This document shows positions 3,433 through 5,075 of a stretch of DNA of 7,502 nt, piece by piece. The translations under genes and the position numbers were made by a program. A model generated the notes under the pieces. It saw nothing but the letters and a program-made list of their open reading frames with translations. It ran no database searches and had not been told where the DNA came from. Origin of the DNA: a virus (taxonomy: Duplodnaviria; Heunggongvirae; Uroviricota; Caudoviricetes); IMG/VR virus record IMGVR_UViG_2778261666_000008. One strand, written 5' to 3'. Each line of letters opens with the position of its first letter. The stretch's first letter is position 1.

Positions 3433-3631
3433 ATCCATCACCCTGAGGATGCTGATATTGCCCCTTGCGCATCATGTGGATTAATTCAACGCCGGCCAGT
3501 ATCGTAGCCGTTCCATGAAATAGGTGTGCAAGTTCTCCGGTTGCTCACGGGCTACCTGTTCTGCAATTACCGGTATATTCATCCGCTCTTTGTAGGCAAC
3601 GCCGCTGGCAGCCAGGTCAACGTTGAAGTGG

Positions 3632-4459
3632 TCAACCAAAACTGGCCACCGAGTTAGAGTTTTTCCAGTATCGGTTTTCCGATTCATTTGGTGGCAACCC
3701 ACCGTTATATTCGTGCGGCCTGAGCGCGTTGTAATACCCAACGATATAGTCCGTTATTTCATGGGCAGCATCGCTGAAGTTCATGTAACCCATCACCGGT
3801 ATCCACTCGTTTTTCAGGCTCCTGAAGAAGCGCTCCATCGGGCTGTTATCCCAGCAATTTCCTCGTCGACTCAGGCTTTGCTTTATCTGATATCTCCACA
3901 GTAACTGTCTGAAATTCCTGCTGGTATAGTGACTGCCTTGAGCCGAGTGATACAGTAAATTAGCCGGTTTCCCCCGTGCTTCCCAGGCCATCGACAGGGC
4001 TTTACCTGTCAGTGCGGAATCAGGGAAAAATGACATCGCCCAGCCAACCGGTTTACGGGAAAACAAATCGAGTACAACAGCCAGATAAGCCCAGCGTTTT
4101 CCCGTCCAGATATAAGTCACATCACCGCACCAAGCCTGATTAGGCTCGGTAACAGCAAACTGGCGATCCAGATAATTAGGGATCTCAATGTGTTCCTTAG
4201 ACGCCTTCTTATAACGATGGCCAGGTTGCTGACAGCTGATAATATTGAGCGCTTTCATCAGCTTTGTTGCCCGCCAGCGGCTCAGTTTTATACCTTTGGT
4301 GGTGACCATTGCGGCAATGCTTCGCGCTCCTGCTGAACCGTTACTTTCGTGATAAACTTCACGCACAAGGCTCAGTAATGCCACTTTCGTGGCGTCAGGC
4401 TTCCTGGGCTGCCGCCAGTATTTATAACTGCTGCGATGAACCCCAAACACGTTGCACAC
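3632..4459 (-). CDS. IS3-family transposase OrfB (DDE catalytic domain), normally expressed as an OrfAB fusion by -1 ribosomal frameshift
   Basis: The frame is open from 4564 to the TGA at 3632-3634; the first start codon listed (4457-4459) is GTG. Contains WCGDVTYI (first Asp) and [17 protein letters not shown] (Glu region) blocks typical of IS3-family DDE transposases. The position expected for the second catalytic Asp reads Ala (HSAQGSHY, codon GCT at 3941-3943). Confidence 0.85.
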
Positions 4460-4494
4460 AACGGCAACAGGAAACCGCGCCCTGAGTTTCTCAA

Positions 4495-4806
4495 CTAATG
4501 AGAATTGTTCAGGGAGTCTGACATCAAGAGCGCGGTAGCCTTTCTTAATATATCCCTTTCCATTTCAACGCGTTGAAGTCTTTTCTTCAACTCACGTATT
4601 TCAATCTGCTCAGGTGTCATGGGTGAAGCTATGGGTGATTTTCCCGCTCGCTCTTCTTTCAGTTGTCGAACCCATTTATCCATCGTGGATTTGCCGACAT
4701 TCATCGCAGTGGCAGCGGCGGCAACGGTGTAATGCTGATCGAGTACAAGCTGGGCAGCCTCGAGGCGAAACTCGGGGCTAAAATTGCGTCTGTTACGTCC
4801 GGTCAT
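4495..4806 (-). CDS. IS3-family transposase OrfA (helix-turn-helix and leucine-zipper part)
   Basis: 103-aa ORF, ATG at 4804-4806 preceded by AGGTGA. The sequence, including the C-terminal ...[16 protein letters not shown], closely resembles IS911-type OrfA as recalled from memory. Confidence 0.85.
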
Positions 4807-4853
4807 AATGTCACCTGTTTTGACTATGAGGTGATGATATCACCTCTATTCAG

Positions 4854-5075
4854 GTGGCCAAATTCACTATGCCACTACATTGTACGTTCTTCATTGCGCG
4901 CGAACACACCCAGGCAGAATATCGCTGGATTGAAATGTTCGGGCATGGCAAGCGTATGAATATGCCGTGGTGGGGCGGTTTTGATCCACGTGCATGGGAT
5001 GTGGCAAGCCTGATGGATTTTGCTGTGCCGGTGGTGGCGTGTCTTCTGGTCTGGATGTTGATTAATCGTGGGTGA
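4854..5075 (+). CDS. Small hypothetical ORF with C-terminal hydrophobic segment; possible remnant of a gene interrupted by the IS
   Basis: 73-aa ORF whose first 9 codons lie inside the IS terminal repeat. An internal ATG at 4935 would give a 46-aa peptide ending ...FAVPVVACLLVWMLINRG (one predicted transmembrane helix). No convincing RBS. Low confidence that it is expressed. Confidence 0.25.
   Translation: MAKFTMPLHCTFFIAREHTQAEYRWIEMFGHGKRMNMPWWGGFDPRAWDVASLMDFAVPVVACLLVWMLINRG

Follow-up and report, generated by a model that had tools for sequence, protein, structure and literature searches.

A chimeric IS911-group insertion sequence, probably a fixed non-autonomous relic, in a decaying integrative island of non-coli Escherichia

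Anatomy, flanks and setting of the element

We examined a window of 7,502 nucleotides (the whole stretch of DNA analysed; IMG/VR virus record IMGVR_UViG_2778261666_000008, Caudoviricetes), which contains an insertion sequence running on the minus strand from exactly 4879 (TGTAGTGG...) to exactly 3624 (...CCACTTCA), flanked by two truncated genes (Table 1). IS3-type elements carry a pair of ORFs, orfA and orfB, that are fused by -1 ribosomal frameshifting into the DDE transposase OrfAB; this enzyme makes a circular copy of the element, which is pasted in with a 3-bp duplication. The IS3-family layout is complete in this copy: orfA and orfB partly overlap, orfB lies in the -1 frame relative to orfA, and the terminal inverted repeats end in 5'-TG...CA-3'. 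The modelled OrfAB fusion scored 361.8 bits against the NCBIfam profile NF033516 'IS3 family transposase' (cut-off 160 bits; profile positions 1-368 of 369 covered), and Pfam domains were present in both frames (HTH_Tnp_1 in OrfA; HTH_21, rve and rve_3 in OrfB). The exact OrfA protein is recorded in 34 blocks of the assembly collection; look-ups of the exact window OrfB, in versions of 250 and 275 aa, found nothing on record. IRL and IRR agree at 18 of 27 positions, and, of the 36 positions of the IRR, 35 agree with the canonical IS911 IRR oligonucleotide given in PMC2909936.

Table 1. Features of the element and its flanks (window coordinates)
Feature	Position	Strand	Remarks
Whole insertion sequence, chimeric	3624..4879	-	1256 bp; IS3 family, IS911 group
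IRL, TGTAGTGGCATAGTGAATTTGGCCACC, from the 'P-type' parent	4853..4879	-	same as IRL of L001 and all sister copies
IRR, 36 bp, IS911-type	3624..3659	-	plus strand = TGAAGTGGTCAACCAAAACTGGCCACCGAGTTAGAG
orfA, 103 aa, HTH and leucine-zipper regulator	4495..4806	-	intact; Lys-to-Arg from heptamer G
orfB frame, 305 codons	3632..4549	-	open from AUU at 4549 to stop at 3632; free of internal stops and indels
Frameshift motif A_AGA_AAG (canonical A_AAA_AAG)	4540..4546	-	G at 4544; motif read 4546 to 4540
Predicted three-way-junction RNA	4474..4536	-	5 nt downstream of motif; stem ACCGCGC/GCGCGGU closing two hairpins
First catalytic Asp, GAT, WCGDVTY	4121..4123	-	intact
Ala codon GCT replacing second catalytic Asp (GAT), HS[D>A]QGSHY	3941..3943	-	codon read 3943 to 3941
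Catalytic Glu, GAG, SPMERFF	3833..3835	-	intact; within recombination junction zone
IS911-derived 3' segment (IS 1014-1256)	3624..3866	-	crossover zone ~3830-3866, where both parents are nearly identical
Right flank: 5'-truncated holE/hot (DNA polymerase III theta-like) remnant	3481..3623	-	NCBIfam NF008207, E = 3e-20
Left flank: 5'-truncated small phage membrane-protein ORF (CTFFIAREHTQ...LINRG*)	4880..5075	+	

On the strand of the element the flanking triplets are CAA and ACG (TTG and CGT on the plus strand), and neither a 3-bp nor a 4-bp direct repeat is present. Intact relatives do carry 3-bp duplications (GAA/GAA in L001, AAG/AAG in L013), and a count with crude end-calling gave 7 relatives with such a duplication among 27 of full length, where chance would give about 0.4. 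The initial annotation had taken the missing duplication as a sign of decay; the mismatch of the triplets stands, but it is not informative on transposase function. It would reflect a later rearrangement of the flanks, and most relatives also lack a clean duplication. The theta-like remnant on the right matches NF008207 over profile positions 17-58 of 76, so that the first 16 positions are missing (Pfam DNA_pol3_theta was likewise found on the gene calls of L010, L015, L016, L018 and L019). On the left, the corresponding flank of L010 (95% identical) runs 537 bp further before it reaches the element; within this additional stretch the membrane-protein ORF has its 5' end and a tail-fibre gene its C-terminal Peptidase_S74 part. 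For L010, a displaced duplication (CGT-IS-aCGT) was considered as the original target, with a continuous theta-like ORF reading across it, and rejected, since the left flank there is the minus-strand tail-fibre gene. Adjacent deletions and recombination between IS copies are named as frequent causes of missing duplications in PMC11708052, and here the duplication was probably removed by a 537-bp IS-adjacent deletion at the left end together with an earlier 5' truncation of the theta-like gene.

The integrative island around the element is itself decaying, its integrase being frameshifted. The host genes compared are 91% (fliE-fliF) and 90.5% (ypdAB-lpxP) identical to those of E. coli, and related records carry the source names Escherichia, E. 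marmotae and unclassified Escherichia, which points to a non-coli Escherichia, E. marmotae or a cryptic clade, with the species not firmly established. Escherichia albertii, at first suggested by the ~90% identity to E. coli, was replaced on the basis of these source names.

Parentage of the element and its catalytic triad

Sliding identity along the element splits it into two parts. IS positions 1-1000 are 99-100% identical to L001 and 58-86% identical to the IS911-type copies L013 and L014, and positions 1-1013 as a whole reach only ~57-87% nucleotide identity to IS911-type copies; positions 1101-1225, conversely, are 100% identical to L013/L014 and 56-80% identical to L001. The same stretch (1101-1225) is 100% identical in the IS911 copies of E. 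coli 536 and pO157, and a 245-bp query of the 3' segment matched hundreds of copies on E. coli chromosomes and pO157 at 97.6% identity. At the protein level, OrfAB residues 314-391 share 88.5% identity with S. dysenteriae IS911 and 73% with the P-type parent, whereas residues 1-313 share 68.5% with the S. dysenteriae IS911-family transposase. The IRL differs from that of L013 and L014, the only IS911-type copies compared. By the ISfinder convention, isoforms share roughly at least 95% protein or at least 90% DNA identity; overall nucleotide identity to L013 and L014 is ~75%, below isoform level, and only IS 1014-1256 is IS911. These identities show that the element is a chimera: an unnamed IS911-group element supplied the left 1013 bp, and IS911 the right 243 bp. 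The earlier designation as IS911-like holds at the level of the group only, the last 243 bp alone being IS911 proper.

With IS911 itself (IS3 family, IS3 group; Shigella dysenteriae, X17613) the window element has in common the ORF arrangement (frame 0 for orfA, frame -1 for orfB), the frameshift window (...AUAUUAA(A/G)AAAGGCUACCGCGCUCUUGAUGUCAGACUCCCUGAAC...) followed by a three-way junction that in the window element is predicted, an HSDQGSHY-type DDE core and the TG...CA ends. It differs in its OrfA (103 aa, against 100 aa in IS911), in the Ala at the second catalytic Asp, in the interrupted heptamer and in the lack of a 3-bp duplication. The P-type parent is an unnamed, widespread IS911-group element annotated only as 'IS3 family transposase' (e.g., WP_085967274.1 of E. 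coli PK8241 and WFZ16085.1 of E. marmotae), which also occurs on plasmids of Klebsiella, Citrobacter, Enterobacter, Yersinia (pYV), Rahnella and Erwinia. It has the same length (1256 bp) and the same IRL as the window element and is an intact relative with a GAA 3-bp duplication; the PK8241 copy differs from window IS 1-1013 at five positions, including the heptamer G and the Asp-to-Ala change. Compared with it, the window copy has its 3' 243 bp, including the IRR, swapped for IS911 sequence and appears to be catalytically dead. IS1400 was tried as a name for the P-type, on account of the Yersinia pYV matches, and rejected, as the literature table places it with IS407 (OrfA 88-95 aa).

The initial annotation had read the HSAQGSHY block of OrfB as a replacement of the second catalytic Asp by Ala, and the comparison bears this out: the triad reads D, A, E, and the change is a single A-to-C substitution at IS position 938 (window 3942). 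In the alignment column of the second Asp, 116 of 120 homologue cluster representatives have D and the other 4 have G, among the 41 copies that could be scored in species-representative genomes 40 have D, and a HMMER alignment to the HTLV-2 integrase core (6qbv) puts the Ala under the D of the catalytic TDNG motif. Every close relative has GAT/Asp (L001, L002 and canonical IS911-family proteins, e.g., P0030), so that an Ala shared by reference IS911-group elements, which would have undone the reading, was not found among them. A sequencing or assembly error was ruled out, since the Ala-coding C is present with identical flanks in six independent assemblies (L004/L017, L015, L016, L018, L019 and L020; the whole window is 99.95% identical to L004) and also in contigs L003, L008 and L011. 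The loss makes this copy a defective member of the IS3 family, whose membership by descent is unaffected.

The copies at a second locus, on the yfdY/tailspike side (L005, L006, L009 and L012), have Asp. Two short-read contigs with island-type flanks, L007 and L010, also have Asp at IS position 938, so that a rule of Ala throughout the locus is valid for the isolate and long assemblies only; L007 and L010 may represent real convertants, a polymorphism or assembly mixtures of two IS copies. Among the isolate and long assemblies the Asp-to-Ala change appears private to one chromosomal locus, which suggests that it arose in place and was then inherited vertically, with further damage added later in some strains: a 1-bp deletion at IS position 605 in L016 and L020 and a CAG>TAG change at IS position 973 in L019, in agreement with which the gene calls of these three are broken. 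From the general behaviour of DDE enzymes, we infer that the copy would be unable to catalyse its own transposition, as the initial annotation had proposed for it on this and two other grounds; it is the lost Asp that bears the proposal out.

It is quite improbable that the copy is still mobile, either because Ala is tolerated or because it is moved in trans by the OrfAB of an intact IS911-group copy in the same cell. Trans mobilisation is conceivable since both terminal repeats are intact (the IRR nearly that of canonical IS911, as given above), related genomes contain related Asp-bearing copies, and the frames of orfA and orfB are otherwise uninterrupted. Against this, the Ala copy was found at one locus only and always with the same right flank, the exact OrfB look-ups found it in no other place, the Asp column is essentially invariant, the two ends of the element come from different parents, and the additional lesions in some strains are as expected without selection for function. 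The IS911 transposase, moreover, acts preferentially in cis, which counts against mobility in trans.

The frameshift site

In the orfA/orfB overlap the mRNA reads AUA UUA AGA AAG GCU, with a G interrupting the run of adenines, as the initial annotation had described. In the orfB frame the G is synonymous (AAA to AAG), and the A_AAG tetramer is kept despite it; what is left of the heptamer is a hexamer/tetramer site (AGA_AAG). The close relatives have A AAA AAG, and when 185,579 species-representative genomes were scanned with a query that carried a degenerate base at this position, the 77 matching loci had A in 76 cases, C in one and G in none. An exact 29-mer with the G variant had no match in the species-representative genome collection; the representative of the source species is therefore without the variant.

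The G is present, but it does not count as independent evidence that this copy has decayed, because L016 and L020, at the same locus as the window, combine A_AAA_AAG with Ala, and because otherwise intact Asp copies at the yfdY-side locus carry the G in four independent samples (L005, L006, L009 and L012). In all, only two distinct loci were found to carry the G, one in the island and one on the yfdY side, both without a target duplication. An argument that the variant occurs at four or more loci, and hence on a transposing element, was dropped after the flanks of L007, L008 and L010 proved to be those of the window's island locus.

A putative stimulator is retained downstream of the motif. 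The minimum free energy fold of 4420-4570(-) is -46.1 kcal/mol (z = -2.49 against shuffles), and the stretch of the predicted three-way junction is the most IS911-conserved part of the first 1000 bp (83-86% identity); PMC4066793, citing its reference B48, names a three-way junction as the stimulator of IS911, and the predicted structure would be the expected stimulator of frameshifting here. The same source describes A_AAG as the tetramer most prone to shifting in E. coli, notes its use in many IS elements, and gives a background of ~0.04% frameshifting for constructs without a motif. PMC4066793 and PMC5009743 report 5.6% frameshifting for A_AAG alone with a strong stimulator, tetramer sites in 87 of 490 surveyed IS1/IS3 elements, and production of the IS1222 transposase at G_CGA_AAG. 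Like the sites of IS1222 and of other IS3/IS1 elements that shift on A_AAG tetramers or NNA_AAG hexamers, the AGA_AAG of the window can be compared by its form, which is NNA_AAG, a form in which only the A-site tRNA-Lys re-pairs perfectly, from AAG to AAA (PMC5009743, PMC4066793). The hexamer of IS1222 is, however, native and shown to work, whereas that of the window is a rare derivative of a heptamer conserved in 76 of 77 relatives.

These comparisons suggest that the G probably means attenuation, not loss, with less OrfAB made than normal. That the G was instead the primary inactivating lesion, so that no OrfAB was made and the element was dead before the Asp-to-Ala change, we regard as unlikely. 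The strong constraint on this base, for which 76 of the 77 relatives, drawn from many genera, have A and not one has G, would fit such a course, as would the statement in PMC5009743 that frameshifting 'substantially increases' from a hexanucleotide to a heptanucleotide site. However, the Ala does not depend on the G and probably preceded it at the locus, since L016 and L020 have Ala with an intact A6G; the G variant sits in otherwise intact Asp copies elsewhere; the predicted stimulator is intact; and the tetramer and IS1222 data given above count against it too. The otherwise intact copies with A_AGA_AAG would offer a simple natural test of hexamer versus heptamer in an IS911 context.

Recombination between strains and the present state of the copy

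The initial annotation had supposed that the copy may now act mainly as a recombination substrate, and the comparison of strains gives this direct support, in the chimera, a variable 3' tract, the allele combinations at two sites and a shared right junction. Among strains with the same flanks the IS911-type tract varies, spanning positions 1014-1256 in the window group and 1227-1256 in L010 and being reduced to 1254T in L016 and L020, which indicates gene conversion; the assemblies nearest to the window depart from it at two bases of the IS911 patch. All four allele pairs (G/C, A/C, G/A and A/A) were seen for sites 336 and 938, and three different left junctions share one right junction. The metagenome assemblies L003 and L008 have a fully P-type 3' end together with the right flank of the window, a pattern that may be an assembly artefact, because homologous recombination alone explains it poorly. 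The present role of the element would be a passive one, that of homologous sequence with which other IS911-group copies recombine and undergo gene conversion; these processes would have given rise to the chimera, to the spread or import of the heptamer G and to the differences in the 3' patch among strains.

Retention of the copy for a useful function is a very improbable reading. OrfA, together with an OrfAB that has lost catalysis yet keeps end binding and multimerisation, would then act as a dominant-negative trans-repressor of IS911-group relatives, and the element would be a domesticated transposition inhibitor in an Escherichia lineage and not a neutral relic. A milder form of such a novel reading is that A_AGA_AAG would be a natural frameshift site that works, at low efficiency, in an IS911-group element. 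OrfA is indeed intact in every copy of the locus, even where orfB is broken, it is described as a regulator of IS911 transposition in PMC2909936, and at least six independent assemblies retain the locus. Yet orfA has only 312 bp and the divergence is short (99.8-99.95% identity), so that its intactness is expected by chance; the dead OrfAB is not conserved, given the orfB frameshift and the nonsense codon in some strains; and the frameshifted integrase shows decay of the surrounding island as well.

All three features on which the initial annotation had rested are in the sequence, but they are not three independent signs of decay, and only the Asp-to-Ala change is a clear lesion. We are fairly confident that the copy is a fixed, non-autonomous IS3-family relic of the IS911 group, located in a non-coli Escherichia within an integrative island that has decayed. 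The copy is ordinary and of little importance beyond its correct annotation: the 391-aa gene calls in the isolate assemblies L015 and L018 present it as an active 'IS3 family transposase' with programmed frameshift, and it is better annotated as a defective chimeric IS3-family element. As such it may serve as a small, clean example of three known processes in one copy, i.e., a catalytic-site point mutation, an IS-adjacent deletion by which the target duplication is lost, and gene conversion between divergent IS relatives.

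Catalytic site and composition of the element

The insertion sequence (IS) lies exactly where the initial annotation had placed it, and by descent and architecture it is a member of the IS911 group of the IS3 family. The modelled OrfAB fusion scored 361.8 bits against the NCBIfam IS3 transposase model (cut-off 160), and the orfB frame contains neither internal stops nor indels. With an overall identity of ~75% to IS911 it is not IS911 itself, and as an individual copy it lacks the intact DDE triad and the target duplication of the family.

Features of the element and its surroundings in window coordinates
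Feature	Position	Strand	Remarks
P4-type tyrosine integrase of the island	1-1113	minus	frameshifted
233-aa protein	2588-3289	plus	Pfam Invasin_D4 match
Short open tail	3393-3480	minus	right after the stop of the theta-like remnant; IHMMRKGQYQHPQGDGLSPTEQFYLLTFHR, then stop
Theta-like (holE/hot) gene, right flank			first 16 profile positions missing
Insertion sequence, 1256 bp	4879-3624	minus	TG...CA ends: TGTAGTGGCATAGTG... / ...GTTGACCACTTCA
orfA, 103 aa	4806-4495	minus	HTH_Tnp_1 domain
orfB frame, -1 relative to orfA	AUU 4549 to stop 3632	minus	HTH_21, rve and rve_3 domains
Small phage membrane ORF, left flank			5' end missing
YadA-like trimeric autotransporter adhesin	6132-7502	plus	continues past the window end

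OrfB carries the motif HSAQGSHY, with a GCT codon (3943 to 3941) for the Ala that had been read as a replacement of the second catalytic Asp, and this reading is borne out. The closest full-length relative (L001), on the E. coli PK8241 chromosome, has GAT at this codon, and PGAP calls its transposase intact, with a programmed frameshift; the canonical IS911-family transposase of S. dysenteriae (P0030) reads HSDQGSHY; and the column is D in 116 of 120 homologue cluster representatives (G in the other 4) and in 40 of 41 scorable copies from species-representative genomes, the lone exception having N plus two stop codons. Aligned by HMMER with the catalytic core of HTLV-2 integrase (6qbv), the Ala falls under the D of TDNG, with WCGDVTY at the first catalytic Asp and PMERFF at the catalytic Glu. 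Since the relatives, P0030 and this alignment all place Asp at the Ala site, Ala is not the reference state of the group, nor does the catalytic Asp map elsewhere. From what is established for DDE/RNase-H-fold enzymes, we infer that the change abolishes catalysis, and because the triad reads D-A-E the copy would be unable to transpose by itself. Ala-bearing copies with the G heptamer in two isolate assemblies (L015 and L018, both at 5045-6219) are annotated as one fused transposase of 391 aa, thus automated annotation does not flag the loss of the catalytic site.

A new observation, missed in the initial annotation, is that the element, judged from its sequence, is a hybrid of a widespread IS911-group element (P-type) and IS911. 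Counting from the left end, it is 99-100% identical to L001 over IS positions 1-1000, with only five differences in 1-1013 (336, 657, 787, 882 and 938), and identity falls to 56-80% over 1076-1225. Against two IS911-type copies, from E. coli 536 (with an AAG/AAG duplication) and from pO157 (upstream of ehxC), it is 58-86% over 1-1000 and 100% over 1101-1225. Hundreds of E. coli and Shigella copies share the last 245 bp at 97.6% identity, and the final 36 bp agree at 35 positions with the canonical oligonucleotide for the IS911 IRR (right inverted repeat) given in PMC2909936. For protein residues 1-313, identity is 98.7% with an 'IS3 family transposase' of E. marmotae and 68.5% with IS911; for residues 314-391 the values are 73% and 88.5%, respectively. 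The crossover falls in IS 1014-1050 (window 3866-3830), a zone that includes the catalytic Glu codon and in which the parents are nearly identical. IS1400 was considered as the 5' parent and rejected.

Frameshift signal and flanking sequence

In the orfA/orfB overlap the mRNA reads AUA UUA AGA AAG GCU, with a G at 4544, where relatives carry A_AAA_AAG (A6G). A degenerate scan of 185,579 species-representative genomes recovered 77 loci of the same IS group (Enterobacterales, Pseudoalteromonas and others) with A at the variant base in 76, C in one and G in none, and the exact 29-mer with the G was absent from the same genomes; the base is under clear constraint, with G a rare, derived state. The interruption noted initially is present, but it does not hold as a sign of decay of this copy: two Ala-bearing isolates at the same locus (L016 and L020) have A6G intact, the G occurs in otherwise intact Asp copies at a second locus, next to yfdY, in four independent samples, and both the A_AAG tetramer (as A_AGA_AAG) and a candidate stimulator are retained. 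The change (AAA to AAG) is synonymous in the orfB frame. The candidate stimulator (4536-4474) begins five bases past the motif, with a closing stem ACCGCGC/GCGCGGU around two hairpins; its predicted fold (-46.1 kcal/mol, z = -2.5) would correspond to the three-way junction that PMC4066793 cites (its reference B48) as the stimulator of IS911. The same source describes A_AAG as by far the most shift-prone in E. coli (5.6% with the IS3 pseudoknot) and tetramer sites as used by 87 of 490 surveyed IS1/IS3 elements, and PMC5009743 reports that the IS1222 transposase is made at G_CGA_AAG and that NNA_AAG hexamers give a 'relatively low level' of frameshifting, which rises substantially on extension to a heptamer. 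On this reading of the motif, the G probably cuts OrfAB production only in part, and the copy would make less OrfAB than normal.

The flanks (CAA-IS-ACG) show no duplication, as first described, but this says little about the transposase: an exact 3-bp duplication was found in 7 of 27 full-length relatives from representative genomes (crude end-calling), far above the ~0.4 expected by chance and still a minority, so that its absence is common and reflects what has happened to the flanks, not whether the enzyme works. These flanks are rearranged. A short-read contig of the same island (L010) has the same left-flank sequence (95% over 226 bp) 537 bp further from the left inverted repeat (IRL), and in these extra 537 bp lie the ORF's missing 5' end and, from a tail-fibre gene, the C-terminal part with Peptidase_S74; the window layout is therefore L010-like, less 537 bp deleted right beside IRL. 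A third left junction in the island, at an acetyltransferase gene, is seen in L007 and L008. IS-adjacent deletions and recombination between IS copies are documented in PMC11708052 as frequent causes of missing duplications, and the copy may have mediated, or at least borders, local deletions. The short tail behind the theta-like remnant may be a C-terminal fragment of another gene. In two contigs the left-flank triplet recurs one base off at the IRR side (ATT-IS-cATT in L023, CGT-IS-aCGT in L010), which may be chance, or the right junction may now and then carry one base more.

Island locus, inheritance and probable exchange between copies

Assemblies were reached through the exact OrfA of the window together with the neighbouring 233-aa invasin-D4-like protein. 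The island adjoins fliE, in the order YadA-like adhesin, truncated small ORF, IS, theta-like remnant, invasin-D4-like gene, DUF1233 gene, integrase and fliE. Five NCBI isolate assemblies (L015, L016, L018, L019 and L020) have identical IS flanks, as does a long metagenome scaffold (L004/L017) that matches the entire window at 99.95% identity, and all six carry Ala; as independent additional lesions, L016 and L020 have a 1-bp deletion at IS position 605 and L019 has CAG>TAG at 973, with gene calls broken accordingly. Copies at the second chromosomal site, flanked by yfdY and a truncated tailspike/gtr prophage remnant (L005, L006, L009 and L012), have Asp, as do two short-read contigs with island-type flanks (L007 and L010), which may be convertants, polymorphism or assembly mixtures. 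The Asp-to-Ala change thus belongs to the island locus and is inherited there, and the copy would be passed on vertically within a decaying island. Mobilisation in trans, for which both ends are intact, is unlikely, because the Ala-bearing chimera was found at one locus only and IS911 transposase acts preferentially in cis. The sister IS at yfdY (L006 5928-7183) has Asp, the G heptamer and a private 891A; on one side of it is yfdY (DUF2545) and on the other a truncated P22-like tailspike, with an IS200-type Y1 transposase gene and the gtr cluster next in line. This copy, too, has no duplication (GGG-IS-GCT), and the locus is another IS-bordered prophage remnant.

Across 5,426 complete E. coli genomes, none of which holds the whole locus, the core flanks reach only 90.5-91% identity, and the 233-aa protein is recorded under the source names Escherichia, E. 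marmotae and unclassified Escherichia, which makes the host a non-coli Escherichia. The 233-aa protein has no match in NCBIfam and, apart from a few E. coli, appears confined to E. marmotae and the cryptic clades of Escherichia. The adhesin, with four tandem ~26-aa repeats (NNAVINQNINNAK-ESMAYTDQQVTK), is 85-95% identical to E. coli versions and is called in the strains at 286, 428, 454 and 457 aa. Compared with the 434-aa version in L003, the integrase has a 1-bp gap that scrambles the C-terminus and shortens the protein to 370 aa (the form called in L004, L017 and L019 as well), so the catalytic C-terminal part is lost, and the island is probably no longer excisable in the lineage of the window. 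Comparison of L004 and L007 revealed a 42-bp perfect direct repeat (L004 2541-2582 and 10993-11034; the window is L004 3305-10806), one copy of which directly borders fliE at its 3' end, next to the integrase; the pair probably represents the att repeats of a ~8.5-kb island enclosing the whole window.

Among copies with a common right flank (the isolates share the left flank too), the IS911-type tract spans IS 1014-1256 in the window, L004, L015, L018 and L019 and 1227-1256 in L010, is reduced to 1254T in L016 and L020, and is absent from L003 and L008. At sites 336/938 the window group has G/C, L016 and L020 have A/C, the yfdY copies together with L007 and L010 have G/A, and L001 has A/A; with all four combinations present, recombination or recurrent mutation is needed. 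The simplest account of these patterns would be repeated short-tract conversion of the island copy with a P-type copy elsewhere, e.g., the one at yfdY. An ancestral IS911 patch at the island locus is slightly favoured, as every isolate retains 1254T alongside the flank. Being short-read contigs (metagenome or Logan), L003, L007, L008 and L010 can mix two IS copies, and their linkage of 938 to the remaining sites is not guaranteed; the P(1211)-W(1227) junction of L010 should be real, as it lies within one 31-mer. The element would persist as a passive patch of homology that trades sequence with further copies of the IS911 group. Precedents are well documented for defective copies, for hybrids between ISs, for deletions next to an IS and for frameshifting at A_AAG or hexamer sites, and the element is of known kinds throughout; its sole mildly interesting thread is the natural A_AGA_AAG variant in otherwise intact copies.
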